From Desulfuromonadales bacterium (GTDB lineage Bacteria > Desulfobacterota > Desulfuromonadia > Desulfuromonadales > UBA2197), in assembly GCA_014859605.1 (NCBI GenBank), contig JACUTW010000002.1, positions 17,711 through 81,710 on the forward strand: 64,000 bases of DNA, in the 5' to 3' direction. The notes beneath the pieces were generated by a model. That model was not told where the DNA came from. It ran no database searches and was given only the letters and a program-made list of their open reading frames with translations. Shown in pieces: positions 10,685 through 64,000 of this stretch (within the stretch, counting starts at the first letter, position 1; every line of letters begins with the position of its first letter). Position numbers and translations under genes: made by a program.

Positions 10685-11328
10685 TGTCGGTGCATCTGCG
10701 CCCGGAAGAGATCGAAGCCGAATCGTTCCGCATCATCGACAGCGAGGCCGGGGCGCATGGCTGGTCAGCAGCGGAATGGCCGATTGTCCGGCGCGCCGTT
10801 CACACCAGTGCTGATTTCGATTATGTGCGCGACCTGGTCATTGCCCCGACGGCGCTGGCCAAGGGGATCACTGCCCTGCGCCGCGGCCGGACGATCGTCA
10901 CCGATACACGCATGGCCAAGGCCGGAATCACCGCGGCGCGGCTCGACCCTTTCGGCATCGAGGTGCGCTGTCTGGTCGATGATCCGGTCGTCGCCAAGAG
11001 TGCCAAACGCCTCGGCGTCACCCGCTCGCTGCTGGCGATGCGGACCGCGGTACAAGTGGAAGATGCCGGCATCTTCGTCATCGGCAATGCTCCGACGGCG
11101 CTCTTTGAGCTGCTGCGGCTGATTCGCGAGGAGGGGGTGCGTCCCGACCTCATCGTCGGCCTGCCGGTCGGCTTTGTCGGTGCGGCCGAAAGTAAAGCCG
11201 AACTCCTGGCGATGGCGGCGGACTATCAGCTGCCGATGATTACCAATCGCGGGCGCAAGGGGGGGTCGAATGTCGCCGCCGCCGTCGTCAATGCCCTCCT
11301 CATCCTTGCTGCCGGAAGCGGGGATTGA
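10684..11328 (+). CDS. cbiC: cobalt-precorrin-8 methylmutase
   Basis: FRIIDSEAG, VHTSADFDY and VIGNAPTAL blocks. ATG 10684 overlaps the cbiX stop (TGATG). The table start 10675 is a GTG alternative. Confidence 0.85.
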   Translation: MSVHLRPEEIEAESFRIIDSEAGAHGWSAAEWPIVRRAVHTSADFDYVRDLVIAPTALAKGITALRRGRTIVTDTRMAKAGITAARLDPFGIEVRCLVDDPVVAKSAKRLGVTRSLLAMRTAVQVEDAGIFVIGNAPTALFELLRLIREEGVRPDLIVGLPVGFVGAAESKAELLAMAADYQLPMITNRGRKGGSNVAAAVVNALLILAAGSGD

Positions 11329-45613: not shown

Positions 45614-46264
45614 TTAGCGACTTTTTGTGACCCCTTGACGGGGACATAAAGCGAAGATCGGGCAGGTCGAGCAATCCGGGGTCGGGGCTTTACAGAAGGC
45701 CCGACCATGAGCGATGAGAAGGTGGCTGGTGGTGATCCAGTAGCGGCGCGGCAGCAACTCCGCAAGCTCGGTCTCGATGCGGTCAGGATCTCTGGCGGTC
45801 GTCCAGCCGAAGCGCTGCGCCAGGCGGCTGACGTGGGTATCGACGACCATCGCCGGAATTTGGAAGGCGGTGCCGAGGATGACGTTGGCGGTCTTGCGTC
45901 CGACGCCGGGGAGGGAGATCAACTCGCGAAGGGTGGCTGGGACCTTGCCGTGGTGGTGCTGCATCAGCCCTTGCGCACAGCCGATGAGGTGGCGGGCCTT
46001 GGCATGGTAAAAGCCGGTGGAACGGATCAATTCTTCGACCTCGCTGAGCTCCGCCTGACTGAGGTTGGCGGTATCGGGGTAGCGGGTAAAGAGGCTGGGG
46101 GTGACGAGATTGACGCGCCGATCGGTACACTGGGCGGAAAGGATGGTGGCAATGAGGAGCTCAAAGGGGGAGCGATGCGCCAGAGAACACTCGGCGGCCG
46201 GATAAACTTCTGCCAGGCGGTCAAGGAGGGTGGTCGGAGCCCGGGTTAAAGCGGGGGATTTCAC
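45614..46264 (-). CDS. nth: endonuclease III
   Basis: HhH-GPD (LPGVGRKTANVIL) and 4Fe-4S loop CKAPTPDCSTCPIFALC (C-x6-C-x2-C-x5-C). GTG at 46264 lies 1 nt after the hypE stop. The longer table ORF (to 46633) overlaps hypE and is rejected. Confidence 0.85.
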   Translation of the reverse strand: MKSPALTRAPTTLLDRLAEVYPAAECSLAHRSPFELLIATILSAQCTDRRVNLVTPSLFTRYPDTANLSQAELSEVEELIRSTGFYHAKARHLIGCAQGLMQHHHGKVPATLRELISLPGVGRKTANVILGTAFQIPAMVVDTHVSRLAQRFGWTTARDPDRIETELAELLPRRYWITTSHLLIAHGRAFCKAPTPDCSTCPIFALCPRQGVTKSR

Positions 46265-46265
46265 C

Positions 46266-47282
46266 TTAGCAGATCCGCGGCAGCTGTTCGCCGGCGAGCA
46301 TTTCGACGCCGCGGCGTCCGCCGATGGCGGTACGCATGAAGACTTTTCCCGGCGCCGTGGCAGCGACCACACCGATCGCCGCCGCCTGGATTCCTTCGGG
46401 ATGCCGGCGCATGATCGCCAGGGCAGCTTCGGCGCATTCCGGGGCAACGATGGCGAGGAGTTTCCCTTCGTTGGCGACAAAGAGGGGGTCGAGGCCGAGA
46501 ATGGCGCAGGCGCCGGCGACAGCAGCATCGACGGGGAGAACGGCTTCGTCAAGGGTGATGTCAATCTGCGATTGCAGGGCGATCTCTTTGAGGGTGGTGG
46601 CGATGCCGCCGCGGGTCGGATCGCGCAAAACATGAAGTCCGCTCCCGATGGTCTGGATCAATTCGGCAACAATATGGTTGAGGGCGGCACTGTCACTGCG
46701 GATTTCGGAGGCGAGGTCGAGCCCTTCGCGACTGGCCAAAACCGCCATGCCGTGATCGCCGATGCTGCCGTTGATCAGGACAACATCACCGGGTTGGGCG
46801 TTGTTGCCGCGAATGTCGTAGTCATGGTCGATGACGCCGATCCCGGCGGTATTGATAAAGAGTTTGTCCCCTTTGCCGCGCGGCACGACCTTGGTGTCGC
46901 CGGTGACGATCTTGACTCCGGCCTGATCGGCGGCGCGGCGCATCTCAACGAGAATCCGCCGCAGATCGTTGACGGGCAGCCCTTCTTCGATGATCAGGCC
47001 GACGCTCAGCCACTGCGGCCGGGCGCCGACCATGGCGAGGTCGTTGACCGTGCCGTTCACCGCCAGATCGCCGATGCAGCCGCCGGGAAAGAAGAGGGGG
47101 TCAACAACGTAGCTGTCGGTGGTGAAGGCGAGGCGTCCCTTCACCGGCGGCAGGATGGCAGCGTCGTTCTGGTCCTGACCCGCCACCCCGGAGAGGGTCG
47201 GGATGATGACTTCGTCGAGGAGCTGGTGGCTGAGTTTGCCGCCACTGCCGTGGCCGAGGAGGATGACATCTGTTTTTAGCAA
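46266..47282 (-). CDS. hypE: hydrogenase maturation carbamoyl dehydratase HypE
   Basis: ILLGHGSGG N-terminus, AIR-synthase-like fold, C-terminal PRIC motif. TTG at 47282 is preceded by GGAG (7-nt spacer); the table start is 47312. Confidence 0.9.
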   Translation of the reverse strand: MLKTDVILLGHGSGGKLSHQLLDEVIIPTLSGVAGQDQNDAAILPPVKGRLAFTTDSYVVDPLFFPGGCIGDLAVNGTVNDLAMVGARPQWLSVGLIIEEGLPVNDLRRILVEMRRAADQAGVKIVTGDTKVVPRGKGDKLFINTAGIGVIDHDYDIRGNNAQPGDVVLINGSIGDHGMAVLASREGLDLASEIRSDSAALNHIVAELIQTIGSGLHVLRDPTRGGIATTLKEIALQSQIDITLDEAVLPVDAAVAGACAILGLDPLFVANEGKLLAIVAPECAEAALAIMRRHPEGIQAAAIGVVAATAPGKVFMRTAIGGRRGVEMLAGEQLPRIC

Positions 47283-47446: not shown

Positions 47447-48544
47447 TCAATCGTGATCGCCGTATTTGTAGGCGGCGGCGCAGGTCCCTTCGCTGGAGAC
47501 CATGCAGGCGCCGACCGGATCCTGCGGCGTGCAGCGCCGGGCAAAGAGGGGGCACTCCGGCGGCGTGATCTTCCCTTTGAGGATGTCGCCGCAGCGGCAA
47601 CCGGCCGGTTCGATCGACTCCTCCACCGTCACTGGTAATTGCACTGCCGCATCGAAGGCCGCGAACTCGGGGCGGAAATCGAGGCCGGAGTCCGGGATGA
47701 TGCCGATCCCCCGCCAGCGCGCGTCGCCCGTGGTAAAGACCCGCTCAAGGAGTTGCTGCGCCTTGCGATTCCCTTTCTGGCGCACCAGGCGGCGGTATTC
47801 AATCTCGACCTCGGCTCTGCAGGCAAGGATCTGGCGGCCAAGCATTTTGATGCCGAGCAGGACATCGAGGGGTTCAAAACCGGTGACGACACAAGGGATG
47901 CGGCAGTTCGCGACCAGCGGCTGGTAGGCATCGGCGCCGATCACCGCGCTGACGTGGGCCGGGGCAAGAAAGCCGCTGACCTGTAGTTCGGGATCGGCCG
48001 CCAGAACCTGCATCGGTGTCGGCATGGTCTTGTGGGCGCCGAGGACAAAAAAGTTGTTCAAGCCGCGGCGCTGCGCTTCCAGGATCGATCCGGCAATGGT
48101 TGGAGCGGTGGTTTCAAAGCCGATGCCGAGAAAGACGATAGCGACCTGGGGATTCTTTTCGGCGAGAGCCACGGCATCGAGGGGGGAGTAGACGATGCGC
48201 ACATCGCCGCCCTGCGCCTTTTCCCGCAACAGGTTGCTGGATGAGCCGGGGACGCGCATCATGTCGCCAAAGGTGGCGATGATCGTTTGCGGGCGCCGGG
48301 CGAGGGCGATGGCATGATCGACATAATCGATCGGCGTAACACAGACCGGACAGCCGGGCCCGGAGATGAGGCGGATCTGCGGCGGCATCAGCGTGCGGAT
48401 GCCGTGCTGATGAATCGCCATGGTATGGGTGCCGCAAACCTCCATCAGTGTCATGATTCCCGCATAGTCGGCAACCAGTTCAGTAATTTCGGCAACGAGT
48501 TTGCCGGCAATGACCGGATCGCGATATTCGCTGCTGTGTTTCAT
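47447..48544 (-). CDS. hypD: hydrogenase maturation protein HypD
   Basis: 365 aa. EYRDP, CGTHTMAI, GPGCPVCVTP and C-terminal Cys cluster are typical of HypD. Confidence 0.9.
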   Translation of the reverse strand: MKHSSEYRDPVIAGKLVAEITELVADYAGIMTLMEVCGTHTMAIHQHGIRTLMPPQIRLISGPGCPVCVTPIDYVDHAIALARRPQTIIATFGDMMRVPGSSSNLLREKAQGGDVRIVYSPLDAVALAEKNPQVAIVFLGIGFETTAPTIAGSILEAQRRGLNNFFVLGAHKTMPTPMQVLAADPELQVSGFLAPAHVSAVIGADAYQPLVANCRIPCVVTGFEPLDVLLGIKMLGRQILACRAEVEIEYRRLVRQKGNRKAQQLLERVFTTGDARWRGIGIIPDSGLDFRPEFAAFDAAVQLPVTVEESIEPAGCRCGDILKGKITPPECPLFARRCTPQDPVGACMVSSEGTCAAAYKYGDHD

Positions 48545-50780: not shown

Positions 50781-51008
50781 TATTCCACGATTTCAGTCTT
50801 TGGTTGTTGTTGCTGACGATCTTTATGGTAATTTTTTCATGGCCCTTAGTGGCGCATGGAGTCTCTGGAGGTTTGTAATAAATCTTTCCTGGTCAATTAA
50901 TGGAGGAGGACGGGGAATGGGCACCCTTTTTGCTTTTATCGGAATCGCATCAATAAAATATCATCGATTAGGAAATATAAGATTTAAAGCCACTTAGGAG
51001 GCGCCGAT

Positions 51009-54000
51009 ATGAAACGGCTCGGACAAAAAATTTGTGTAGCAGTAGCGTTATCGCTGGCGTTTGTAGCCATATGGCACGATTCGGCGCAGGCCGCAATGCC
51101 GGTTATCAGCTCCCTTGGGCAAATCAAGAATAGTTCGGTTGTTACTCCGACCCGCATCGATGTTGATGCGGCCGGAACGATCTATCTTTGTGACGGTACT
51201 TTGAACGGGGTGGCGCGCTTTGATAAATATGGCAAAGCGCTTCAGGTTCTCAGGGGTGGATACAAGGTCAGGTCGAATGGTGTCGCTGTTACACCGGACG
51301 GAAGCCGTGTTTTTGTTTCTGTTTCCGAGCCGAACAGCGCTGTTGCCACTGCAGTTGCAGTCATTAACGGGTCTACTGGCGAGTTAATCGGCTATCTCGG
51401 TGGTGGTTTTGGCGAGTTTAAAGGGATTAGAGAGATTGACCTGGATGCGGCCGGAAATATCTATGTCGGTAATTACGATAAGGGCAAGACTGTCGCTACG
51501 GTCGCAGCCAATTTTGACACGACCGCTCAGATTGATGTTTATGATGGTGTCACCTACGCAAAGACACACTCCTTTGGTGCTCCCGCTTCGAATCTTGTCA
51601 ACGGCTATTATTTGCCTCTGGCCGGAGAGTTCGGTGAAATTGGCGGTTTGACGGTCGATGTTGTTAATCAGGAAGTCATCATCGCTGAGGGTTGGAATAA
51701 CAACGGGATTACCCGCGCGCAGGTTTTTTCTCTTGATGGAACATTGAAACGTCTCTTGACCGAGGCGGAAGTCTCCGGAACCCAGATTAACTGTAAGCCG
51801 GTGGGATTGACGGTCGATCCCACCGGTCGAGTTTACATGCTCAGTATTTTAACCAGTACCATTCATGCCTTTACCATTAATCCGGTGGTTCAGTATCTGG
51901 GGAAATTCACCAGTGGGACTCCTGACCCGGCTTATGATCCTATCACCGGGAAGGTTTATCCCTGGACGGTCGGGATGATTCCCTCCCCGGCTTTTGATGT
52001 GGTCTATGATTCTTTGACCAATCGTATCTTTGTCGTGACAGACGGTAACGGTATCCAGATCTTCTCGGTAGATGGTTCGACTAATCCGGTAAAGACCAAT
52101 AATGCTCCTGAAGCACCGGCTCTGATCAGCCCTGTTCAGGACGTTGTCGTCGCCACACTAACCCCGACTCTGCAGTGGTCGGCGGCCGTAGATGCAGATA
52201 ATGATGTTCTTTCCTACAATGTTCAGATCATGGCGTTAGATGGCACGATCGTCAGCAGTAACTCTAATATTGCAGCGACCAGTCATCCGGTTGCCGCCGG
52301 TAAATTGGTTGAAAATAGCTGGTACACCTGGCAGGTTCAGGCCGCTGATGCCGAGTTGACTTCGCCCTACAGTGCTGTCGGGAGTTTTTGGGTCAATGCG
52401 GTTGAGGAAGCGCCGACCGCAGCGCTCCTCCTTTCACCCGACAACGCTACCAGGGCCGACAAGGATACAATTTTCAGTTGGCAGGCGGCAACGGATGCCG
52501 ACCCCTTGAGCTCAATCAGTTACCGTTTGGAAATTGCCCGAAATGCGGATTTCACCGCACCAATCATCAGGATTGAACAGAGCGGGCTTAGCAGTGCCCC
52601 TCTGTCGACTTTGCCCGGTTATGACGACCTGCAATCCGGGACCACCTACGACTGGCGAGTTGTTGCAGTTGACAATAGTGCTAGCCGCTTGATCTCAACC
52701 AGTGCTGTCCGCTCCTTCTTTAGTAACAGCGCCCCCGAAATTCCGGTGATGCTCAGTCCGCTTCAGGGTGACGAAGTTGCAACCTTGACGCCGGATTTGC
52801 AGTGGGCGGCCCCTGTCGATGCCGATGGCGACACCCTGCGTTACAATGTCAGGATCGTTGATGCTGCCGGCGTGGTCGTGAGTACCAACAACTCTGTTGC
52901 GACGACAAACTTTATGGTTACGGGCGGAGTTCTCCTTGAAAACAATCAATATGGCTGGCAGGTCCAGGCCGATGATGGCAAGCTCACCTCTGACTTTAGC
53001 GAAATTAAATACTTCTGGGTCAATGCCGTTGAGGAGGCGCCGACCGCGCCAGCCCTTGACGCTCCGGCAGCTGTAATCAATGCTGACAAGGACACGACTT
53101 TTCATTGGCAGGCAGCAAGCGATCCTGATCCCCTTGCCTTCATCAGTTACCGTCTGGAAATTGCCCGGGATAGCGATTTCGCGACGCCAGTGATTGTTGT
53201 TGAGCAAGCGGAACTCTTCAGTGCCGTCCTCTCAGAAATGGCCGGTTATGACGACTTACAGGCGAATACAACGTACCAATGGCGTGTTCTTGCTATTGAT
53301 AATACCGGCTTGAGTACAGCGAGCGAAGTTCGCGCATTGACTTATGTCAGTACGATTCTGACGATTGACGCCACCTTCCCCGGCGCCAAAGTCTATCTCG
53401 GCGGCAATAGCGCTTATAGTGGTCGCTATGTTGGCGAAGTGCCGGTGGCGCTACGCGACATCGATCCCGGAACGATCGAAGTTGTTGTCGAACTTGCCGG
53501 TTTTGAACCGTGGATCAAAAGTGTTGTTGTGAACCAGTGGCAGGGTGTTGTTGTGACTGCCGACCTCGTCGTCGCCATTCTCCCCGGCGAGTTCAAGAAG
53601 GCCTCCCTGTTCGCCGGTGGTGTAAAGATTCAGGGCGGGCCTGAGGCTGCCCCGGTGCTTGTCGATTTCGATAGTGACGGAATCGATGATCTTCTCGTTG
53701 CCGATGGCAGCGGAAAACTCCTTCTCTACAAAGGGCTGGCCGGAGATGTCTGGTCGCTGGCGGCCGCTGTTCAGCTCCCGGGGGTGACTCTCCCTGTCGG
53801 TGCTGTTCCTTTTGTTGCTGATTGGAATAATGACAATCGGAAAGACCTCCTGGTCGGAGCCGCGGATGGTTCGGTCTCTCTTGCTCTCAATGTCGGGACA
53901 CAGGAATCGCCGGTCTTTGCCGCACTCATCTCGTTGCAGGCTGACAATGCTCCCTTGAGTGTCGGCAGCAATGCCGCCCCGCTCCTTTTTGATCTTGACG

Positions 54001-54710
54001 CTGACGGTGCTAAAGATCTTCTGGTCGGGAGTGGCGATGGTACACTCTACAGCTTCCGCAATATCGGTAGTGATGCGACCCCGGTCTTTGCGGCCCGCGA
54101 AGTGCTGATTGCCGCCGCTGCCGGCGCCTCGAATGCTTCAGCGCTTGTGTCGGATTGGGATGCGGATGGCAGTAAAGAGATCCTCCTCGCGGCAAATCAG
54201 GAAATTGCTTTGTATGAGCGTCAAGATGACGCTTATGTTAAAGGGGATCCTCTCCTCGTTCATCAGTCTCTCTATAATACTCGCTTGCGTTCATACGAAA
54301 TGCAGAGCAGCAGCTTCGGCGAAAAAATCCGTATGATTGCAGCTAATCCGGATGGCAAGTTTGGCAAAGACTTGCTGATAGGCAATGCCGCCGGAGAAAT
54401 TTTGTTGGCAAATTCGACGATGAATAAATCGCGGGCGATCTCTCCTCATTTTGATCTGGCATTAATGGCAACGGTCGCTGAAATCGAAGCACTGATTCAG
54501 GAGAATAGCTTGAACACGCCACTGCTCACCTTGACCTTGAGTCAGTTAAAGACGAATATTCAGTCACAGGCTGTCAATAAGTTGAAGAGCTACGATAAAG
54601 CCAAACAAAATGTGCTCTCTATGCAGTCCGCACTGCAAGAAAACACGGAAATTTCCGCAGTCATCAGTAAACTGCAGACCCAACTGAACAGCAAGATTCC
54701 TTTGAAATAA
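51009..54710 (+). CDS. secreted 1233-aa multidomain protein: NHL-like beta-propeller + 2x(approx. 209 aa) FN3/Ig-like tandem + PEGA + five FG-GAP/VCBS repeats + helical tail
   Basis: TAGGAGG RBS. Signal peptide ...WHDSAQA. NHL-like blades (IDVDAAGTIYLCD, IDLDAAGNIYVGN, LTVDPTGRVYMLS). PEGA-like ILTIDATFPGAKVYLGG...VVVELAGFEPW. FG-GAP repeats (VDFDSDGIDDLLVADGSGKLLLY, FDLDADGAKDLLVGSGDGTLYSF, etc.). Confidence 0.8.
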   Translation: MKRLGQKICVAVALSLAFVAIWHDSAQAAMPVISSLGQIKNSSVVTPTRIDVDAAGTIYLCDGTLNGVARFDKYGKALQVLRGGYKVRSNGVAVTPDGSRVFVSVSEPNSAVATAVAVINGSTGELIGYLGGGFGEFKGIREIDLDAAGNIYVGNYDKGKTVATVAANFDTTAQIDVYDGVTYAKTHSFGAPASNLVNGYYLPLAGEFGEIGGLTVDVVNQEVIIAEGWNNNGITRAQVFSLDGTLKRLLTEAEVSGTQINCKPVGLTVDPTGRVYMLSILTSTIHAFTINPVVQYLGKFTSGTPDPAYDPITGKVYPWTVGMIPSPAFDVVYDSLTNRIFVVTDGNGIQIFSVDGSTNPVKTNNAPEAPALISPVQDVVVATLTPTLQWSAAVDADNDVLSYNVQIMALDGTIVSSNSNIAATSHPVAAGKLVENSWYTWQVQAADAELTSPYSAVGSFWVNAVEEAPTAALLLSPDNATRADKDTIFSWQAATDADPLSSISYRLEIARNADFTAPIIRIEQSGLSSAPLSTLPGYDDLQSGTTYDWRVVAVDNSASRLISTSAVRSFFSNSAPEIPVMLSPLQGDEVATLTPDLQWAAPVDADGDTLRYNVRIVDAAGVVVSTNNSVATTNFMVTGGVLLENNQYGWQVQADDGKLTSDFSEIKYFWVNAVEEAPTAPALDAPAAVINADKDTTFHWQAASDPDPLAFISYRLEIARDSDFATPVIVVEQAELFSAVLSEMAGYDDLQANTTYQWRVLAIDNTGLSTASEVRALTYVSTILTIDATFPGAKVYLGGNSAYSGRYVGEVPVALRDIDPGTIEVVVELAGFEPWIKSVVVNQWQGVVVTADLVVAILPGEFKKASLFAGGVKIQGGPEAAPVLVDFDSDGIDDLLVADGSGKLLLYKGLAGDVWSLAAAVQLPGVTLPVGAVPFVADWNNDNRKDLLVGAADGSVSLALNVGTQESPVFAALISLQADNAPLSVGSNAAPLLFDLDADGAKDLLVGSGDGTLYSFRNIGSDATPVFAAREVLIAAAAGASNASALVSDWDADGSKEILLAANQEIALYERQDDAYVKGDPLLVHQSLYNTRLRSYEMQSSSFGEKIRMIAANPDGKFGKDLLIGNAAGEILLANSTMNKSRAISPHFDLALMATVAEIEALIQENSLNTPLLTLTLSQLKTNIQSQAVNKLKSYDKAKQNVLSMQSALQENTEISAVISKLQTQLNSKIPLK
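52098..53352 (+). repeat. in-frame tandem duplication (period about 627 nt) within the 1233-aa protein gene
   Basis: NNAPEAPALISPVQDVVVATLTPTLQWSAAVDADNDVLSYNVQI... is repeated as SNSAPEIPVMLSPLQGDEVATLTPDLQWAAPVDADGDTLRYNVRI... Both units end with a second module (FWVNAVEEAPTA...ISYRLEIAR..DF). Confidence 0.85.
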
Positions 54711-54745
54711 TACAGGGACTATCGATGCAAAACTGGAGAAAAAAG

Positions 54746-55522
54746 ATGCTTAGAAAATCCGTACTGGTTGTTGCTCTGCTTCTGGTCGCAACAAATCTAT
54801 GGGCGGCGAAAACCATGGATGTCTCAGGGACACGACATAATCTGTCGTCAACCTCGGTCAATATCCCCGGCGGCAACTATTATATGGCGACGAATGAAGA
54901 TGAAGTCTGCATCTTTTGCCATACGCCGCATGGTGGCACCATGAACACCCCCTTGTGGAACCGTGCCGTCCCGACCGGAACCGGTTTTACTCACTACACC
55001 AGTGCCACCCTTTCCGGCTATATGACGGGAGCAGGGATGTCGACCCGACCCGTCAATGCTGAGTCGCTCCTTTGTATGTCGTGTCACGATGGCTCTACGG
55101 CGATGAACAGTATCATCAATAACAGTAATCGCACTGCCGCTGCCCCGGATAATACGAGTAATATCCAACCCATGTTCTTTGCCATCGGCGGTGCGATCGG
55201 TGATGCTCCAGATCCAAGTGGGTGGGGCTTTTTAGGGGACACCAAAAACCTTTCCGACGATCATCCGATCTCCTTCAGTTATTCTTCATCTTATAACCAC
55301 ACGGATAACACCGGTGAGTTTCGTGCGCCGGCCGATGCCAAGACCTCGGGGATTCGCTTTTTTGGTGCGGATATTGCCACCGGTAATTTTGTCGAATGTT
55401 CGTCGTGCCATGATCCGCATGTGAATTACGAAGCCGCAAATGGTGGCGATACTGCTTATACTCCCTTTCTAGTAACACCGAACACCGGCAGTGCTCTTTG
55501 TCTCGCTTGTCACATTAAATAG
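54746..55522 (+). CDS. tetrahaem c-type cytochrome (two paired-CXXCH-like halves)
   Basis: GGAG lies 7 nt before ATG 54746. Signal MLRKSVLVVALLLVATNLWA. Haem motifs CIFCHTPH, CMSCHDG, CSSCHDPH, CLACH (last five residues before IK-stop). Confidence 0.85.
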   Translation: MLRKSVLVVALLLVATNLWAAKTMDVSGTRHNLSSTSVNIPGGNYYMATNEDEVCIFCHTPHGGTMNTPLWNRAVPTGTGFTHYTSATLSGYMTGAGMSTRPVNAESLLCMSCHDGSTAMNSIINNSNRTAAAPDNTSNIQPMFFAIGGAIGDAPDPSGWGFLGDTKNLSDDHPISFSYSSSYNHTDNTGEFRAPADAKTSGIRFFGADIATGNFVECSSCHDPHVNYEAANGGDTAYTPFLVTPNTGSALCLACHIK

Positions 55523-55533
55523 AAAGCTTGCAA

Positions 55534-55572
55534 GTGTTTAAAAAGCCCCAAAAGTCGGGGCTTTTTAAACAC
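55534..55572. terminator. strong bidirectional-type terminator hairpin
   Basis: Perfect 16-bp stem GTGTTTAAAAAGCCCC / GGGGCTTTTTAAACAC with a 7-nt loop (55550-55556). Confidence 0.75.
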
Positions 55573-55642: not shown

Positions 55643-58600
55643 ATGCGCTTTCATGAAAATTTACTTGGTATAGTCCTGGCCATAAGTTTGTGTTTACCCC
55701 TGTCTGCCTTTGCAGCCAAAGTACATGATCAGGGATGTAATAACTGTCATCGGAGTGGCGCTAATCCCCGCACCTTAGCGAATCTGTGTACTCCCTGTCA
55801 TCTCTCCTTTGGATTAACAAAAGCGAGTGCCGCCTTGGGGAGTCATCCCTCTCCTCCAGAACCAATCTCCGGCGCAGAGACGGTCCATTTCTGGGGAGGA
55901 TCAACGACAACACAGCTAGAGGCGGGAGCAACCAATCCGCCGACGGCTTTTTATACCAGTCGCTATTCCATATCAAAAAACCGCGTGACCTGTACAATAT
56001 GCCACGATCCGCATGCTGATAAGGTCGTCAAGCCCACACTGCTTCGTGCCACAGCGGACGGAGACCTGATTTGCCAGCAATGTCACAGCAGCAGATTCGT
56101 TTCGAATGTCCCGGATACCAATGCCACCCTGACCCATCCCCTTGTCAGTGATTATGAAGCCTTTGCAGCCGCTAATCCGACTAAATACAAAACGCTGAGC
56201 AATTCAGCCAGCGGCGCTGTTCGTCTGGTTGCGGGTGATGTATCCTGTACCTCCTGTCATTCTCCGCACTTTGCAGACTCCTCCTCTGCGACAGAAGACG
56301 GTTTGTTAAATATTGCTGGACTGACTTCCGGAGACGGCTATCTCCTCCGTTCTGACGGTCCGCTCCGTACCGGCGCTAACCGCGACGGTGCTACCGGCAC
56401 GGGTCAGCTTCGCTCCAACCTCTGTCAGGCCTGTCATACTTACAAGATGCACGGAAAAGGTGGCAACCAGCAGATGATCGGTTGTCTCGACTGTCACGGT
56501 GGACATTCCTACAATAACGGAGCGATCAGCGCCTACGTTCTTGCCGGTAAGTCGCCGGATGCCGTACCGGTACGCGCCCTTCGTGCTCCGGCCGGGACAG
56601 CTCAGGTCACTTATGCGGCCTTTCCTGACGGCGGCAGTGTTAGAACCAAGTGGTCTGACAATACCAAGGGAACGGCTAACGGGTTCTGCGAAAAGTGTCA
56701 TGGTGATGTTCAGAATGATGGCCCTGGCGGACTTGGCAATATTGAACTTGAGCATTTGGAGGGCGGTTTAGCCGAATGTACCACTTGCCACAAACATGGT
56801 GAAACCACCTTCAGTTTTGCCAATGACGCAAACGCCGCCACCTGCGGCCAGTGTCATGGTTTCCCCCCTTATAAAAATATCAGCGGCTTCCGTAGCGAAA
56901 TCGGTGATGCGAATGACGGCGGCTGGGCGGATAACAATGTTGATTTGCCCCGCTATGGTTATACCGATAGCAGTCATTTCCTGGATGAATCAAAAGCCGG
57001 GCATAAAACCCATGCCGGCGCCAAACTGGCGGTGAATCCGGGTGAATGGTACTTTGTCGGCACCTCCGGCATCGACAACTGCAAACCTTGTCACGGTAAT
57101 CAGTCTGGCTCCCTCGCCGGCGGCCATCGTGTTCCGCTGTCAACCGATGCCAATACTTTCCGTGATGTTCATTTTGCTTCCACAGCAACTGTTGGTGGTT
57201 TGGTTCCCTCCTATAATACTGTTGCTCACAAGTGTGACAACACCTACTGTCACTCCAATGGTGGAAAACGCACTGGAGATGGACCGGTCCGCAGTTATGC
57301 TGCCCACACCACTCCGGCTTGGGTCGGCACCGGTGCTAACTACACCGCTGGCGGTTATGGTTCAATCTTCCTGCAACCGGTTGCAACCCGTTGCGCCGAC
57401 TGCCACGGGTACAGCGCAGCGACGATGACAGCACAGGGGAATTCGCCGGTACATAACGCCCATCTCGGCGCCGGTGCCACAGGGATCACTTACGAATGCG
57501 ACGTTTGTCATGTCGCAACGGCCGATAGCACAAGAGCATCAAAGCTGAAACTGGATGCGACCGATGGTCAAAAAGGTGGTAAACACGTCAACGGACAAAT
57601 CGAAGTCGGTTACAAAACCAGTGGTAACGCTTTGTTCGCGTCACTGGCAACTAATGCTGTCGGACCGAATTATGATCCTGTCACCGGTACCTGTTCTGTC
57701 TATTGTCACGATCCGGCTGATATCGGATTGACAGCAGATTGGGATGATACCACCGACATGCAGTGCGATACCTGTCACGGTGGTATCGCGACGGATACCT
57801 CTGCCAATGGCGGAATCGGGATCATCACCTCCGGATCTCATACCAGACACATCACCACCGCTAACGGTGGCCCCGGGCTTTCCTGTGAAGTCTGTCATGG
57901 CGCCAATACCACTGCCGGCACCCATAGCGGCCATCTCGACGGCATGAATAACATGGTGCCGCCGGTGGATGGTGTCAATTTCGCGGATGTCTGTGATGAA
58001 TGTCACGGCTATGACGCACAAGCCGGCGAAGTCAAACCAATCTGGGGAAATCCGGCGACAACCGACTGCGCCACCTGCCATTCCGGAACGCATAAGTCCT
58101 CGGGATGGGTCGGGGCACCGAATGCTCCACTCTTTGCGCTCGATCGCACGACTGGACATGGTCGTCCCGCCGCCAGCGGCAACTATCCGGTCACCGGCAA
58201 TGCGCCGGGTAACTCGGCCTGTCTCGATTGCCATGTCGCCACCGCCAGCGGTCACTTCAGCGGCGGGCTGGGTGATGCGCTGATGCTGCGCACCGACCTC
58301 GGCTTCCCGGCAACCTACAGCGGCAATGAAAATGCTTTCTGTGCCAACTGCCACGGCACCGCGCCGGCGCATCCGACCAAAACAGCCAGTGCCGCAACCC
58401 GCAATATCGGCACCCATGCGGCAAAGCGTTGCATCGGCTGTCATGACCTGCACGGCACAGCGAACATTCATATGGTCACGGAACTAAGGGCCACCCAGAA
58501 TGTCAAGGATAACTCCGCCACCGGTAAATATAGCGGCAACGTCTCCTTCCTGCAGATAACCGGTCTTAATTCCTACGACGAGGATGACGGGGAGGTTGGC

Positions 58601-61600
58601 GGCGCTGGTGAAGTCAACGCTGATGATATCTGCGCCACTTGTCATACCGTGGCTGGCGGCGTCCTGCACAACAACAGCAATAATTCGGCCGTTGATCACT
58701 TCCAGGGGAAAGATTGTATCACCTGTCACGGCAATCATCAGATCAGCGGCAATGCTTTCAAGGTCAGGCAGTGCGACGATTGTCACGGTGGTATCAGTAC
58801 TGATACTTCTGCAGACGGCGGAGTCGGGGTCATCACCACCGGTTCCCATACTCGTCACATTACCACCGCCAACGGCGGTCCGGGCCTGTCCTGCGACATC
58901 TGTCACGGCGCAAATGCAACAATCGGCACCCACCCCGGCCACATCGACGGCACAAATAACATGGTACCGACCAACTATCCGGCCAGCTTTGCCGATATCT
59001 GCGATGAGTGCCATGGCTATGACAACGAACCCGGCGAGGTCAAACCGATCTGGGGCTCCCCGGCAACCACCGATTGTGCCACCTGTCACGCCGGATCTCT
59101 GATCAGTGATGGCTGGCCCGGTGCAGCCAATCCCCCGACCTTTACCTTTGCCCGCACCAGCGGCCACGGACGTCTCCCGGCCAGCGGCACCTACCCGGTC
59201 TCCGGCAATGCCGCCGGTAACTCCAACTGTCTTGACTGCCATGTAGCGACGGGCAGTGGCCACTTTAGCGGCGGACTTGGCGATGCATTGATGCTGCGCA
59301 CCGACGTCGGCTTCCCGGCAACCTACACCGGCAACGAAAATATCTTCTGCGCCGCTTGCCATAGTGCGGCCCCGACCCATCCGACTAAATCGGCAACTGC
59401 CGCGACCCGCGGTATCACCACCCATGCGGGAAAAACCTGCATTGCCTGTCACGACCTGCATGGCACCGGCAATATCCAGATGGTGATTGCCTCGCAGACA
59501 GAGCAAAATACCAAAGACAATTCATCAAACGGTCAATATACCGGCAGTGTTTCGTTCCTGGCGATTACCGGCGCCAACTCCTATGACGAAGACGATGGTG
59601 CAGCCGGCGGTGCCGGAGAAATCAACGGCGACGATATCTGCGCCACCTGCCATCTCCTGGCAGAAGGGGTTACCCACAATAACAGCAATAATTCAACTGG
59701 TAACCATTACCAGGGTGAGGATTGCTTTACCTGTCATTCCGGCCACAAAAATGCGACCAACTCCTTCATCGCAGGTGCCGGTACGGCTTGTAACGATTGT
59801 CATGGCAACCCGCCGAATACTGGTGCGCACGGTACCGGCAGTAACAAACACACCCGGGTTTCGTCGAATGACCGAACCCTCGAAGATCTGACCGATTGTG
59901 CTTACTGTCACACCGGCGCGAACGATTACACCTACGATCTTGGCGCTGACCAAGGCGCCGTTGGTGCCCGCGCCAACCACGGCAGCGGCAATCGCGTCGC
60001 GGTCCTTGCCACGTCCATCGGTTACAGCCAGAGCGGTAACCTTTGGGGCTGCGCCAACGTTTGTCACACCTCGTCGGCAGCCGATAGTTTCTGGTTCGAT
60101 AAGAGTAGCGGCAGTGACCCGGCGACCTGGATCAAAGATACCAACGGCATTTCCTGTAATGCCTGCCACTTCTATGCGCCGACCGTTTCTGCGGCCAGTG
60201 TTCCGAACAATCTTTCGGATGTTCACGACGAGCACTTTGCCGCCGGCAAAGGGTGCGCCGAATGCCACCCGATGACCGGTGACTACAACAGCGGCGTCGG
60301 GCATGCAGGACCGTTGACCCATATCGACAGTTTCGATTTCGGTAGCGGTAAAGATGACAATGACGGCCTGGCCCTCGTCGATATGGCGCAGGCAACTCAG
60401 GATGAAGCCGGCTACGACAAAGGCGGCGGCGTTCGCGATGTCGTCCGTGCCGGGATGACCTATACCGATGCCAATACCTGCTCGGGCGGTATCGGTCTCG
60501 GTTGCCATGCCACCGGAGTTCCGGATTGGGATATTCCTATCCCCAACAACAATGCCGGTTGCCTGGAATGTCACACCGACACCAACAACGGCGCGGTTGG
60601 CAACCCTGTCTCCGGTATTCATGACAACAGTCCCAACGGCCCGACAGTCACCGGCGTCGCTCACGACGGCAGCTTCGATAACGGCAGCGGCGGAATTGCC
60701 GATTGCGTGACCTGCCACTCCCTTACCCCGACAGTTGTCGCTGCCAATCACATGAATGGCACCATCAACACCGGCACGGCGATCACCGTTCTCCCCATCG
60801 CCGGCTATAACCAGGCAACCAGCAGCTGTACAACTGCCTGCCACAGCGCTGGTACGGCCTGGGCTTACAAGTGGTCGTTGAGCGCATACGCTACCAACGG
60901 GACCGAGTGTGCCAACTGTCACGGTGACTATGCTACCGGTTGGGTCAGTGGCGTGGCGCCACATACCGAGAACCCGACCCGCGGCAGCAAGCACAACGCG
61001 ACCGGCAATTTGACCTATCCCTGCGCCGAATGTCATGGCATTGGATCTCCCGGCTACAAATGGACGACCATGTGGGATCCGACCGGCGCCACCAGCCATC
61101 ATGGCGACGACAAGATCACCATGAGCAATTCGGCAGTACATACTTTTGCCATCGACACCGCCCCGAACCCGGATCGTGCCGGCTGTACAACTACGAGTTG
61201 CCACGGCAACGACAGCTTGCACAACTTCCGCGTTACGACGACATCCCTGCCGACGGCAACAGTTACCGGCATCGAGGCGGCGATTCTCTGTTCAAGCTGT
61301 CACGGCGGTTATGTCGGCACCAATGCCAACGGCTACTGGCCGGACGGTGCCAACGCTGTCGATAATGGTAGCGAAGACAACAGTGGTGCCCACTTAAAGC
61401 ATATGGTCTATCTCGCGAAGTCGATCTACGATGAGGATCTTGCCGGGCTGCTGACCGATAATGGCAAGGGAGACGCTGATGCAAAACAGAAGGAACTCTG
61501 TTCCTACTGTCATAATGCGCCTGGTTCCGACGGTGACCATGGCCCGGTTGCCAGCCTGCCGGCCGAAGTCAATAGCATGTACAAAGGTTGGCTGCCGAAG

Positions 61601-64000
61601 ACCGCTGACAACGGCGTCTGGAGCGCCGCCAGCAAGACCTGTGCGACGGTCGATTGTCACTTTAACAAAACGACTCCGACAACCAACGACTGGTACGCCC
61701 CGCTTAACAACGGCAACTGCGCTATGTGCCATGTCGATGTGACGGTTGAAACCGCCCACACCAAACATACCTCGGCGGCGACCGCGACCACCTTCGGGCG
61801 CGCCTCCCTCTGCTCCGATTGCCATGAAGCCGCGACCAACTGGGGGACCAACACCGGTCCGGCCACAGGTCACATTGACGGTGTTTATACGGTCGCCGGC
61901 AGCAAAATGACCTCCTATGTCGGCTTTACTTATCCGGCGGTGAAGGGCACCTGCGGCACCAACGCTTGTCACAACAACGGCATTGGCGGCGCACCGATTA
62001 TCGATCCGGTCTGGGGAACGACGCAGGCAAACTGTACAATCTGTCACGCAGGCACCCCGGCGACCGGCACGCACGTCAAGCACATGAGCAACACGGCATG
62101 GGTGTCGGGTGGCTGCAGCGACTGTCACACCGACTCGACAGCTTCTGTAATATCGGCATCTACTCACATGGATGGCGTCCGTAACGCCGGCGGTAGCAAG
62201 AATGTTGTCAATAACGCCAACGGTTCCTGCACCAATACCTGCCATCTCTCTGCCGAGGCCGGGAACTGGACCGGCAACAGCAGCAATATTACTTGTACGG
62301 ACTGCCACAGCGGCAGCGGCGCGTCGGCTTATATCGGCGGCAACAAGACCAGCGTTGGCGGTCCCAACTACATGCCGCAGTACAACATGCACCTGACGGT
62401 TCCGACGGTCTCTGGCAAGGTCCATACGGCTGCCGGTCTTGCCACCGCCTGTACCACCTGCCACAGCAATCTCGCTGACAAGACCACCCACATGAACGGG
62501 GTCTGGACAGCAGATGATGCCGACAACACCAATGACCAGCACCGTGGTCTCTTTGCCGGCTTCACTGACGGGACGGTTCCGACCTGTAACACCGCCTGTC
62601 ACAGTGCCGGTGCCGCCTGGGCCTACAAGTGGTCCGCTACTGCCGGGGCGACGAACGGCACTCAATGCGATAACTGCCACGGTCGCTTCTCAACCGGCTT
62701 TAACGCCGGAGTTATGCACCAGCTCATGGACAGCCGTGGCAATAACGCGCATACCAACAGTGGCAACCTTGCTTATCCCTGTACCGACTGCCACGCGATC
62801 GGTGCCAGCAGCGGTAATTATCCCTTCGCCAATATCAGCAACGACTGGAAAGCGACCGACGCCGGTGCAACCACTCCACACGGCGATGGTTTCATCACCC
62901 TGAACAGCAACGGAACCACCTGGGCCCGCCTTGGCGGTCGCTCCGGTTGCTCTGCCTGCCACGCTGGCGCGACCGGTACGGCGAATAATTATGATTATCC
63001 GACAACTGCCTGGACGTCTCAAACGGTTCTCGGCGATCCGCCTGACGTGAGCGGCAGTTGCACCGCCTGCCATGGCGGCGCGGAATACTGGCCAGACGGC
63101 ACAGTCGCTCCGGATCGTACCGGAAAACATTCCGCCCATGTCCACGCCATTGCGGTTCAACTCGGCGGCGACACGGCGGGGAATCGTAACGCAACCTGTT
63201 CCTATTGCCACCCCAATCCAGGTGAATCCGGGCACAATGACGGCGGCTCGGCCGAAGTCGGACTGTTCAAGAATATCCTCACCGGCGCCTTTACCGATCC
63301 TGACGGGGTCCTCAATACTGCCGACTCAACCTGCAGTCTGGTCGATTGCCACTTTAATAATGCCGTCACTCCGCATTGGTATACCGACATCTATCCGCCG
63401 GCACAGGTGACCTTGACCGCCACCACCGGTGTTGCTGCCAAGCCGCGTTCGATCAATGTCAGTTGGACCTCGCCGGGTGATGACGCTAACGTCGCCAACA
63501 CCACGGTGCACCGTTACGATATGCGTTACGGTACCAGCAGCGCGATTGCCAGCGATTTTGGTCGTACGGACAATTATGCTGGCGGGTTACCTTTGGCTTA
63601 TGCCCAGGGGACGCTCCAGGATGTCACTATTGATAACCTGACGCCGGGAACGACCTACTACTTCAGCCTGCGCAGTCAGGATGTTGCCGGTAACTGGTCA
63701 ACGCCATCCGCTGTCGTCAGCGCCGTGGCGAGCGGTGATACGGTTGTACCGTACTTCGGTGGCGTCAACCGTGCGGCCAAGGCCGATGAATCACAAACCA
63801 TCAATGTCGAATGGTCGCCGGCTGAAGACCACACCATGCCGATCACCTACAAGATCTGGGTCAAGCCGGTTTCGTCCGGTGCCCTTGATATGGATATTGA
63901 TGCACCGCTGTTGACCGGCGTCAAAGGCTACAAGTACCAATTGACCTCTGCCAACGGCGTCGTCAATGACATGATTTATCAGGTTGGTGTGCGTGCTTGT
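55643..64000 (+). CDS. giant multihaem c-type cytochrome, 3' end beyond the window (at least 2,786 codons); NOT in the supplied ORF table
   Basis: Frame +2 is open from ATG 55643 to 64000, with an in-frame TGA at 55625-27 and AGGAG at 55629-33. Frame checked at 56762, 57764, 60002 and 63002. Signal MRFHENLLGIVLAISLCLPLSAFA. Hand count is 52 CXXCH + 11 CX3/4/7CH. FN3-like modules from about 63395. No other +2-frame ORF appears in the table for this span. Confidence 0.9.
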   Translation, partial: MRFHENLLGIVLAISLCLPLSAFAAKVHDQGCNNCHRSGANPRTLANLCTPCHLSFGLTKASAALGSHPSPPEPISGAETVHFWGGSTTTQLEAGATNPPTAFYTSRYSISKNRVTCTICHDPHADKVVKPTLLRATADGDLICQQCHSSRFVSNVPDTNATLTHPLVSDYEAFAAANPTKYKTLSNSASGAVRLVAGDVSCTSCHSPHFADSSSATEDGLLNIAGLTSGDGYLLRSDGPLRTGANRDGATGTGQLRSNLCQACHTYKMHGKGGNQQMIGCLDCHGGHSYNNGAISAYVLAGKSPDAVPVRALRAPAGTAQVTYAAFPDGGSVRTKWSDNTKGTANGFCEKCHGDVQNDGPGGLGNIELEHLEGGLAECTTCHKHGETTFSFANDANAATCGQCHGFPPYKNISGFRSEIGDANDGGWADNNVDLPRYGYTDSSHFLDESKAGHKTHAGAKLAVNPGEWYFVGTSGIDNCKPCHGNQSGSLAGGHRVPLSTDANTFRDVHFASTATVGGLVPSYNTVAHKCDNTYCHSNGGKRTGDGPVRSYAAHTTPAWVGTGANYTAGGYGSIFLQPVATRCADCHGYSAATMTAQGNSPVHNAHLGAGATGITYECDVCHVATADSTRASKLKLDATDGQKGGKHVNGQIEVGYKTSGNALFASLATNAVGPNYDPVTGTCSVYCHDPADIGLTADWDDTTDMQCDTCHGGIATDTSANGGIGIITSGSHTRHITTANGGPGLSCEVCHGANTTAGTHSGHLDGMNNMVPPVDGVNFADVCDECHGYDAQAGEVKPIWGNPATTDCATCHSGTHKSSGWVGAPNAPLFALDRTTGHGRPAASGNYPVTGNAPGNSACLDCHVATASGHFSGGLGDALMLRTDLGFPATYSGNENAFCANCHGTAPAHPTKTASAATRNIGTHAAKRCIGCHDLHGTANIHMVTELRATQNVKDNSATGKYSGNVSFLQITGLNSYDEDDGEVGGAGEVNADDICATCHTVAGGVLHNNSNNSAVDHFQGKDCITCHGNHQISGNAFKVRQCDDCHGGISTDTSADGGVGVITTGSHTRHITTANGGPGLSCDICHGANATIGTHPGHIDGTNNMVPTNYPASFADICDECHGYDNEPGEVKPIWGSPATTDCATCHAGSLISDGWPGAANPPTFTFARTSGHGRLPASGTYPVSGNAAGNSNCLDCHVATGSGHFSGGLGDALMLRTDVGFPATYTGNENIFCAACHSAAPTHPTKSATAATRGITTHAGKTCIACHDLHGTGNIQMVIASQTEQNTKDNSSNGQYTGSVSFLAITGANSYDEDDGAAGGAGEINGDDICATCHLLAEGVTHNNSNNSTGNHYQGEDCFTCHSGHKNATNSFIAGAGTACNDCHGNPPNTGAHGTGSNKHTRVSSNDRTLEDLTDCAYCHTGANDYTYDLGADQGAVGARANHGSGNRVAVLATSIGYSQSGNLWGCANVCHTSSAADSFWFDKSSGSDPATWIKDTNGISCNACHFYAPTVSAASVPNNLSDVHDEHFAAGKGCAECHPMTGDYNSGVGHAGPLTHIDSFDFGSGKDDNDGLALVDMAQATQDEAGYDKGGGVRDVVRAGMTYTDANTCSGGIGLGCHATGVPDWDIPIPNNNAGCLECHTDTNNGAVGNPVSGIHDNSPNGPTVTGVAHDGSFDNGSGGIADCVTCHSLTPTVVAANHMNGTINTGTAITVLPIAGYNQATSSCTTACHSAGTAWAYKWSLSAYATNGTECANCHGDYATGWVSGVAPHTENPTRGSKHNATGNLTYPCAECHGIGSPGYKWTTMWDPTGATSHHGDDKITMSNSAVHTFAIDTAPNPDRAGCTTTSCHGNDSLHNFRVTTTSLPTATVTGIEAAILCSSCHGGYVGTNANGYWPDGANAVDNGSEDNSGAHLKHMVYLAKSIYDEDLAGLLTDNGKGDADAKQKELCSYCHNAPGSDGDHGPVASLPAEVNSMYKGWLPKTADNGVWSAASKTCATVDCHFNKTTPTTNDWYAPLNNGNCAMCHVDVTVETAHTKHTSAATATTFGRASLCSDCHEAATNWGTNTGPATGHIDGVYTVAGSKMTSYVGFTYPAVKGTCGTNACHNNGIGGAPIIDPVWGTTQANCTICHAGTPATGTHVKHMSNTAWVSGGCSDCHTDSTASVISASTHMDGVRNAGGSKNVVNNANGSCTNTCHLSAEAGNWTGNSSNITCTDCHSGSGASAYIGGNKTSVGGPNYMPQYNMHLTVPTVSGKVHTAAGLATACTTCHSNLADKTTHMNGVWTADDADNTNDQHRGLFAGFTDGTVPTCNTACHSAGAAWAYKWSATAGATNGTQCDNCHGRFSTGFNAGVMHQLMDSRGNNAHTNSGNLAYPCTDCHAIGASSGNYPFANISNDWKATDAGATTPHGDGFITLNSNGTTWARLGGRSGCSACHAGATGTANNYDYPTTAWTSQTVLGDPPDVSGSCTACHGGAEYWPDGTVAPDRTGKHSAHVHAIAVQLGGDTAGNRNATCSYCHPNPGESGHNDGGSAEVGLFKNILTGAFTDPDGVLNTADSTCSLVDCHFNNAVTPHWYTDIYPPAQVTLTATTGVAAKPRSINVSWTSPGDDANVANTTVHRYDMRYGTSSAIASDFGRTDNYAGGLPLAYAQGTLQDVTIDNLTPGTTYYFSLRSQDVAGNWSTPSAVVSAVASGDTVVPYFGGVNRAAKADESQTINVEWSPAEDHTMPITYKIWVKPVSSGALDMDIDAPLLTGVKGYKYQLTSANGVVNDMIYQVGVRAC
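57764..59788 (+). repeat. in-frame tandem duplication of a 336/339-codon, nine-CXXCH unit inside the giant cytochrome
   Basis: Unit 1 is 57764-58771 (QCDTCHGGIATDTSANGG...). Unit 2 is 58772-59788 (QCDDCHGGISTDTSADGG...). About three-quarters of residues are identical by eye. The same similarity shows in the antisense shadow ORFs 57641..58471 and 58484..59506. Confidence 0.85.

Follow-up and report, generated by a model that had tools for sequence, protein, structure and literature searches.

The window analyzed in this work is a 64,000-nucleotide (nt) stretch of Desulfuromonadales bacterium assembly GCA_014859605.1 (contig JACUTW010000002.1, positions 17,711 to 81,710 of the forward strand); positions below are those of the window unless another locus is named. 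It contains a gene, here designated X, for a 1233-amino-acid (aa) protein composed of a six-bladed NHL propeller, FN3-like units that vary in number among relatives, a PEGA domain, FG-GAP repeats and a helical region. The current work shows that X stands in strict synteny with genes for an OmcE homologue and a giant multihaem cytochrome, behind a common type of sigma-54 promoter. The reading that we favor, and hold a little likelier to be right than wrong, is that X is a dedicated non-haem structural partner, acting in tethering or assembly, of a paralogous OmcE-type filament system and its giant cytochrome. The core of the cassette in the window is as follows:

50919..50934 (+): sigma-54 type promoter with -24 GG and -12 GC elements, GGGCACCCTTTTTGCT, 74 nt 5' of the X start, pattern KGGYAY-N5-TTGCW
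51009..54710 (+): gene X, encoding an NHL propeller, two FN3-like A-B units, PEGA, FG-GAP repeats and a helical region (reading frame and translation, Pfam, homologues)
54725..55522 (+): OmcE-like tetrahaem cytochrome, 265 aa, with four CxxCH motifs and four distal His (phmmer against PDB)
55643..64000 (+): gene for a giant multihaem cytochrome that begins with a signal peptide and continues past the edge of the window; 2785 aa or more, with 62 or more haem motifs

A conserved cassette of X and two cytochromes

The OmcE-like gene lies directly 3' of X in all 16 distinct loci with readable downstream DNA, a set that includes three loci from a reverse test and one in a cultured organism, and a giant cytochrome gene comes next in all 13 loci that reach far enough. 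Across the cassette loci the identity of X falls to about 35%, and the 5' flank is uvrC in the window's clade and a kinase with a regulator elsewhere. The gaps between X and the OmcE-like gene are short where gene calls give them, being 14 nt in the window and mostly less than 100 nt. In the reverse test, three OmcE-like matches chosen only for their long contigs all had X directly 5', with a cytochrome of more than 3100 aa on the 3' side where the contig allows. The OmcE-like gene was found in none of more than 150 loci that matched only the generic FG-GAP region. The original prediction, made from the window alone, had linked X to the neighboring cytochromes; this co-occurrence holds at every one of the 16 loci, and X homologues away from cytochrome genes were not encountered.

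The genes that follow the giant cytochrome were compared among loci, with a porin in mind, and are not conserved. The gene tables of 12 loci, read without a dedicated beta-barrel predictor, contain no porin within 10 kb on either side, and neither a prolyl isomerase nor a propeller lipoprotein appears in any cassette gene table.

The promoter element at 50919-50934 is the only KGGYAY-N5-TTGCW match on either strand of the 64-kb window. A TGGYAY-N5-TTGCW element is located 5' of X in all 17 loci tested, and its -12 end lies 74-138 nt from the ATG. Moreover, a histidine kinase and a sigma-54 response regulator are encoded directly 5' of X in all 13 loci of the one-unit clade (a single FN3-like unit in X) with enough upstream DNA; the 64-kb window contains no such kinase or regulator of the cassette. 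A k-mer search for a common enhancer site 5' of the promoters recovered mostly the 3' end of the regulator gene, and this candidate was dropped.

The tetrahaem neighbor as an OmcE homologue

A phmmer search of PDB with the tetrahaem protein matched the OmcE filament of G. sulfurreducens over its full length (7tfs_A, E-value 5.6e-28; query 15-265 against chain 10-232) and the OmcE filament of Desulfuromonas soudanensis (9yuq_N, E-value 3.7e-20). In an alignment of 10 X-linked proteins with the two solved OmcE sequences, the four CxxCH motifs and four distal histidines are invariant, the latter including the histidine of an N-terminal T-x-H-[ND]-L motif. The identity of the window protein to G. 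sulfurreducens OmcE is 37-42%, according to how the two are aligned, and by the same methods the two solved OmcE subunits are 39-45% identical to each other; a value of 41% has been reported for the latter pair (bioRxiv 10.1101/2025.10.22.684050). On these sequence grounds, the tetrahaem neighbor is a true homologue of the OmcE nanowire subunit.

The X-linked OmcE-like proteins are 46-64% identical among themselves and 38-47% identical to canonical OmcE. The D. soudanensis protein DSOUD_0663 is 50% identical to the window protein, versus 41% to the OmcE of its own genome. Thus, the X-linked proteins constitute a separate paralogous subfamily.

Size and distribution of the X family

X homologues are 930-1440 aa in length. 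The first protein search produced 39 matches, of which approximately 37 are family members. An all-against-all profile search with the C-terminal half added 35 new cluster representatives at 50% identity that match the PEGA/FG-GAP/helical profile from end to end without a break; about 29 of these are full-length with the complete NHL/A/B/PEGA/FG-GAP/helical architecture, and the rest are fragments. Together with representatives from the first search such as P0025, P0028 and P0031, the family comprises at least about 40 clusters at 50% identity. A scan of a genome collection yielded at least four full-length X loci, all in metagenome-assembled genomes among the matches listed. A distribution restricted to uncultured organisms was considered and was overturned when the profile search and a cluster look-up found a D. 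soudanensis protein. All loci identified belong to Desulfuromonadales-type genomes.

The cassette in a cultured bacterium

The cluster of representative P0309 includes ALC15450.1 / WP_053549656.1 of Desulfuromonas soudanensis WTL. In this genome (locus L173; CP010802.1, 741,857-764,721), a kinase, a sigma-54 regulator, X, an OmcE-like protein, a 2792-aa cytochrome and a further large cytochrome are encoded in this order. The cassette spans approximately 751.9-764.0 kb; its X is 954 aa long and 39% identical to the window X, and its OmcE-like protein has 258 aa. From the adjacent numbering, the cytochrome size and the haem count, the OmcE-like and large cytochrome genes of this locus would be DSOUD_0663 and DSOUD_0664. 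The latter was described as a 69-haem extracellular cytochrome in the 2016 genome paper (PMC4914508). The gene 5' of DSOUD_0663 is discussed neither in that paper nor in the structural preprint (bioRxiv 10.1101/2025.10.22.684050).

At positions 9350-9361 of this locus (CP010802.1, approximately 751,206-751,217), the sigma-54 response regulator gene is out of frame in the complete genome as deposited, with a run of nine C where the orthologue has CTGCCGCCGCTA. This frameshift is either a homopolymer error in the SMRT (single-molecule real-time) assembly or a slipped-strand switch. A real frameshift would leave the cassette unexpressed, in keeping with the lack of DSOUD_0663 filaments from laboratory cultures.

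Domain architecture of X

The sequence at 51009..54710 is the sole long open frame in that interval, and a ribosome-binding site, AGGAGG, is located 7 nt 5' of its ATG. The encoded protein is divided as follows:

51009..51092 (+): Sec signal peptide, aa 1-28, with an AQA/A cleavage site and no lipobox (read from the sequence)
51093..52097 (+): six-bladed NHL beta-propeller, aa 29-363 (profile search, AlphaFold2, Foldseek against PDB)
52098..52724 (+): FN3-like unit 1, module A aa 364-463 and module B aa 464-572 (Pfam fn3 and Ig_Rha78A_N, module profiles, BLASTP against unit 2)
52725..53351 (+): FN3-like unit 2, module A aa 573-672 and module B aa 673-781, the lineage-specific extra unit (BLASTP against unit 1)
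53352..53564 (+): PEGA beta-sandwich, aa 782-852 (Pfam PF08308, 31.6 bits against 20.8; AlphaFold2 strands at model residues 6-74)
53592..54416 (+): FG-GAP/VCBS-type propeller region, aa 862-1136, with five Ca-loop repeats (Pfam FG-GAP_3, AlphaFold2, Foldseek)
54444..54686 (+): C-terminal four-helix region, aa 1146-1226 (AlphaFold2 helices at model residues 369-388, 394-407, 414-431 and 436-449)

The signal MKRLGQKICVAVALSLAFVAIWHDSAQA, followed by AMPV, is of the signal peptidase I (SPase-I) type with an AxA site. The n-h-c signal pattern is kept in nearly all homologues, and no lipobox cysteine was read in the signal of X or in those of its homologues. Four Pfam families exceed their thresholds on X, namely fn3, Ig_Rha78A_N, PEGA and FG-GAP_3; no catalytic domain and no enzyme family was detected in Pfam. 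X has no haem site, and neither a beta-barrel nor a sorting motif was seen on reading the sequence. The full-length protein had no match among PDB sequences by phmmer. The domain order given in the original prediction was read correctly, as judged from Pfam, the profile search and the AlphaFold2 models; what that prediction did not recognize was the OmcE identity of the tetrahaem neighbor, the common sigma-54 promoter and the lineage-specificity of the internal duplication.

Pfam makes no call on the N-terminal 335 residues of the window X; in relatives of X, NHL scores above the cut-off (26.6-40.8 bits against 20). A profile of this region built from 12 family members recovered 1665 NHL-type six-bladed propellers, with E-values down to 1e-44 outside the family. 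The AlphaFold2 model has a predicted local distance difference test score (pLDDT) of 87.9 and a predicted template modelling score (pTM) of 0.89. In a Foldseek search of PDB its matches were the NHL domains of Thin, Brat, TRIM71 and TRIM2/3 and the designed protein Pizza6, with a target template modelling score (TM) of about 0.8. These best matches bind RNA or are designed proteins, and they are non-catalytic. The profile, the Pfam calls in relatives and the predicted fold all agree with the roughly six NHL-like blades that had been proposed from the window.

In the C-terminal half, a PEGA-like domain, five FG-GAP/VCBS repeats and a helical tail had been predicted, and each has a counterpart in the new results. 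PEGA exceeds the Pfam gathering score, and FG-GAP_3 reaches 47 bits against a cut-off of 26.9. Five DxDxDG-type Ca-loop repeats start at aa 885, 937, 994, 1048 and 1112. The AlphaFold2 model of aa 778-1233 (pLDDT 87.4, pTM 0.85) consists of a beta-sandwich, five strand/Ca-loop/strand repeats and four helices, the helical block having a pLDDT of 88-95. Foldseek matched this model to the FG-GAP-type propellers of UmbA4, ITFG2, TcB and the PVL and PLL lectins with E-values of 1e-8 to 1e-5 and a TM of only about 0.35.

The helical region is present in all homologues, and its identity across clades is only 24%. Within the clade, the propellers and PEGA are 75-80% conserved, versus 61-67% for the FN3 modules and the helical tail; this is the pattern expected for binding heads on a spacer. 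The X homologues of locus L172 (6801-9929) and P0036 (locus L003) carry an extra C-terminal tail rich in Ala, Lys and Asp (…AAADKAAADKAAADK…KKNKKNKKDKKH), with a weak Pfam match to the histone H1-like family HC2. This strongly basic tail could bind anionic surfaces or polymers.

FN3-like units and their duplication

Each FN3-like unit consists of two modules, A, matching Pfam fn3 (61.5 bits against a cut-off of 25), and B, matching Ig_Rha78A_N (59.2 against 27.4). The internal 209-codon duplication with a period of about 627 nt that had been noticed in the window is confirmed by BLASTP: the two units of 209 aa share 117 of 207 residues (57%, E-value 4e-81). At the DNA level they are 65% identical, with only 44.5% identity at third codon positions, so this is an ancient duplication, not a recent one and not a product of misassembly. 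Tandem Repeats Finder reported no repeat in the X reading frame, its longest permitted period being 500 nt against the 627 nt needed here, and the nucleotide identity of the copies being only 65%.

Nearly all homologues have one unit. Two units are found in the window's clade, three in P0013 and one in P0021, which is 70% identical. Units 1 and 2 are each orthologous across the window's clade, and the middle unit of P0013 is the extra copy. A single unit is the common state and probably also the ancestral one. Two representatives of 50%-identity clusters, P0303 (1072 aa) and P0327 (1010 aa), contain two A modules and one B module, presumably in the order A-A-B. Thus, single FN3 modules have been duplicated too, besides whole A-B units.

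The giant cytochrome and other features of the region

The 62 haem motifs of the giant cytochrome in the window comprise 52 CxxCH, 5 Cx3CH and 5 Cx4CH. Their spacing recurs with a period of about 336 aa, which suggests that this protein also carries an internal duplication. Among complete relatives, length ranges over 1598-3134 aa and the motif count over 33-81, the maximum being the 3134-aa, 81-motif protein of locus L172. The possibility that the giant cytochrome contains OmcE-like or X-type FN3 modules was rejected, there being no detectable similarity to either. On the minus strand, several open reading frames of 276-509 aa lie antisense to it at 57641-62680; most likely these are shadows of a repetitive, biased coding sequence and not genes. 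An inverted repeat precedes the giant cytochrome gene:

55534..55572 (+): perfect 16-bp hairpin (GTGTTTAAAAAGCCCC...GGGGCTTTTTAAACAC), directly 3' of the OmcE-like stop codon; RNA fold -38.7 kcal/mol, z -5.0

This terminator- or attenuator-like element was found in the window and in locus L001. It is absent from the one-unit clade, in which the gap measures 8-65 nt in most loci. The hairpin may lower read-through into the giant cytochrome gene and could thereby raise the ratio of X and the OmcE-like protein to the giant cytochrome. In locus L170 an extra gene of 271 aa (10955-11770) is located between the OmcE-like and giant cytochrome genes, and its product has a weak match to a carboxypeptidase-regulatory-like (PEGA-related) fold.

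The gene 5' of X in the window, uvrC, is not part of the system. Upstream of uvrC are two hydrogenase maturation genes on the minus strand, hypE-like (45614-46633) and hypD-like (47447-48544), assigned by synteny with locus L001; their spacing is about 800 nt in the window versus about 130 nt in that locus, which indicates some difference between the two genomes here.

Proposed role of X and its alternatives

A binding role of X is supported because the protein has no catalytic or haem feature, because its fold matches are of binding type, and because NHL propellers have been published in cytochrome clusters (omcE, osc, Uet and that of D. ferrophilus). The original prediction of a scaffold rather than an enzyme fits these data as well, given the RNA-binding and designed NHL matches, the lectins among the C-terminal propeller matches and the lack of a catalytic Pfam domain. 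The same prediction put forward organizing or anchoring the cytochromes, or binding mineral surfaces, as possible roles. In the mechanism that we propose, X, the OmcE-like gene and probably the giant cytochrome gene would be transcribed from the one sigma-54 promoter, which outside the window's clade the kinase and sigma-54 regulator encoded on the 5' side presumably switch on. All three proteins would be exported by Sec. X would possess a macromolecule-binding propeller at each end, NHL at one and FG-GAP with the helices at the other, joined by an FN3/PEGA stalk, and would keep two binding partners a set distance apart. One end would probably contact the OmcE-like filament or its subunits, and the other probably the giant cytochrome, the cell envelope or a glycan. 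X may therefore nucleate, tether or organize the wire into which the OmcE-like protein would polymerize, taking the place of the two separate propeller lipoproteins of canonical omcE clusters, and spacer length would depend on whether X has one, two or three FN3 units.

Several points weigh against this proposal. The cassette has no outer-membrane beta-barrel gene, and X could be periplasmic. Binding by X, including which end binds what, its cellular location and its co-transcription with the cytochrome genes are features that we infer. In the window's clade, the strong hairpin splits the OmcE-like gene from the giant cytochrome gene, so that the giant cytochrome may be expressed on its own. 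The FG-GAP region has five repeats in 275 residues versus the canonical seven and aligns with seven-bladed structures at a TM near 0.35, so it is a putative propeller. Finally, the filaments of laboratory-grown D. soudanensis consist of the canonical OmcE, DSOUD_2954; DSOUD_0663, which has the OmcE fold, did not fit the map (bioRxiv 10.1101/2025.10.22.684050).

Other explanations of the same data differ in how X would act. It might, in the manner of the propeller proteins of the osc and Uet clusters, be a transient periplasmic factor of assembly or export that assists in folding, loading or handing over the OmcE-like subunit or the giant cytochrome without entering the finished structure. We regard this as unlikely, albeit worth serious attention: NHL propellers do recur as accessory genes in nanowire and extracellular-cytochrome clusters, and X has a Sec signal only, with no lipobox, beta-barrel or sorting motif, in a cassette that lacks its own porin. 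The variable FN3/PEGA stalk, the Ca-loop FG-GAP repeats and the second propeller, however, are features seen more in exposed structural or adhesive proteins than in chaperones, and the extra FN3 unit was kept through speciation, suggesting that its length matters. X might instead be mainly an adhesin or lectin, whose FG-GAP propeller, with the basic tail of some relatives, would bind glycans, exopolysaccharide, cells or minerals and bring the cytochromes to their electron acceptor. Propellers that bind glycans (UmbA4 with teichuronic acid, PVL and PLL lectins) are among the best PDB matches of the C-terminal model, surface proteins often contain PEGA and FN3, adhesin stalks typically vary in their number of repeats, and some homologues end in the Lys/Ala-rich, histone H1-like tail. 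We nevertheless consider an adhesin doubtful, as the TM of these matches is low (about 0.35) and the strict pairing with the OmcE-like gene (16/16 loci) speaks for one particular protein as partner; that pairing is still compatible with adhesion at the other end.

Two further explanations were weighed. X could be an enzyme whose NHL propeller, like peptidyl-alpha-hydroxyglycine lyase (PAL) or an SMP-30/lactonase, modifies the cytochromes or a cofactor; the Joint Genome Institute (JGI) labels some homologues 'sugar lactone lactonase YvrE', weak SGL matches occur in relatives, and PAL appears at rank 45 in the fold search with the NHL model. We find this extremely improbable, since the SGL matches do not reach the threshold, the folds most like that of the propeller belong to non-catalytic NHL domains, and four-fifths of X is made up of binding or spacer modules. 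In the alignment, moreover, the invariant propeller residues are mostly Gly, Asp and Pro at blade-type positions, with no obvious set of metal ligands. The adjacency of X to the cytochromes could also be meaningless, a gene order merely inherited within one bacterial order, as the Desulfuromonadales-type origin of all loci would allow. This is very unlikely: the order persists where protein identity is down to 35-40% and the flanks on both sides differ, the sigma-54 promoter is common to the loci, the gaps between X and the OmcE-like gene are short, and the reciprocal look-up succeeded in three of three cases.

The structural-partner proposal can be carried further, to a version that we offer as speculation with low probability. 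X, the OmcE-like protein and the giant cytochrome would form a self-contained second nanowire system without its own porin, in which X is a base plate or tip organizer: one propeller nucleates or caps the filament, the other docks a "root" or "tip" cytochrome of 60-80 haems, and the FN3 count is a stand-off ruler. The authors of the D. soudanensis OmcE structure did not find an initiation or termination component in omcE operons (bioRxiv 10.1101/2025.10.22.684050). If this version is true, X supplies that component.

In either form, the X cassette suggests that a variant bacterial system of electron export has an accessory part not described before. It bears on how cytochrome nanowires start, anchor, end and connect to the cell in extracellular electron transfer. 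The presence of the cassette in the cultured, electrode-respiring D. soudanensis WTL makes the hypothesis directly testable.

Comparison with known systems

That propeller proteins are encoded beside nanowire subunits is already known. A search of the literature on FG-GAP or PEGA domains with multihaem cytochromes found no description of X. In the literature searched, we also found none of the combination seen here: a fused FN3/PEGA protein with two predicted propellers, in strict pairing with a distinct OmcE-like subfamily and giant cytochromes, under presumed dedicated sigma-54 two-component control and without a porin. The OmcE survey of the 2025 preprint was limited to genes with a nearby porin (bioRxiv 10.1101/2025.10.22.684050); surveys that require a porin would miss the whole X-linked OmcE-like subfamily.

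NHL-repeat proteins, UetH and UetI, belong to the Uet pathway of Ca. Tenderia and Gallionella (PMC9900912), and NHL propellers are also found in an outer-membrane cytochrome cluster of Desulfovibrio ferrophilus (PMC5815863). As in the X cassette, these propellers are encoded beside extracellular tetrahaem and larger multihaem cytochromes, and they have been proposed to provide sites of protein-protein interaction that stabilize complexes. They consist of a single domain, whereas in X the propeller is fused to domains of four other kinds, and the Uet and D. ferrophilus clusters contain a porin and a prolyl isomerase. The C-terminal region of X shares the FG-GAP_3 match and the Ca-loop DxDxDG repeats with ITFG2, TcB, the UmbA lectins and the PVL lectin; these have seven repeats, whereas X has five, flanked by PEGA and a four-helix region.

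In G. sulfurreducens, the omcS-companion (osc) cluster encodes OscD, a beta-propeller-like protein which is reported to affect filament morphology and not electron transfer itself (Shen et al. 2025, cited in PMC13194489). Going by that description, OscD is like X an accessory propeller protein encoded with a nanowire subunit. The osc cluster as outlined there differs in having the prolyl isomerase OscH and the channel OscEFG, neither of which is present in the X gene tables.

The closest comparison is with the canonical omcE cluster of Desulfuromonadia, which contains two multihaem cytochromes, two beta-propeller lipoproteins, OmcE and a large beta-barrel (bioRxiv 10.1101/2025.10.22.684050). 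Both clusters encode a tetrahaem subunit of the OmcE family with the same eight haem-ligand histidines, adjoined by propeller genes and further multihaem cytochromes. The X cassette, however, lacks the beta-barrel gene, occupies another genomic site and, outside the window's clade, comes with a kinase and sigma-54 regulator that are presumably dedicated to it. In place of two propeller lipoproteins it has one fused protein with an SPase-I signal, in which an NHL and a putative FG-GAP propeller are joined by an FN3/PEGA stalk, and in place of ordinary multihaem cytochromes it has one giant cytochrome with 33-81 motifs. Propeller proteins and porins are what the omcE and omcS clusters known so far point to; the X cassette is a minimal three-gene variant with presumed regulators of its own, in which an OmcE-family subunit is tied to a large protein without haem and to multihaem cytochromes that rank among the largest on record.

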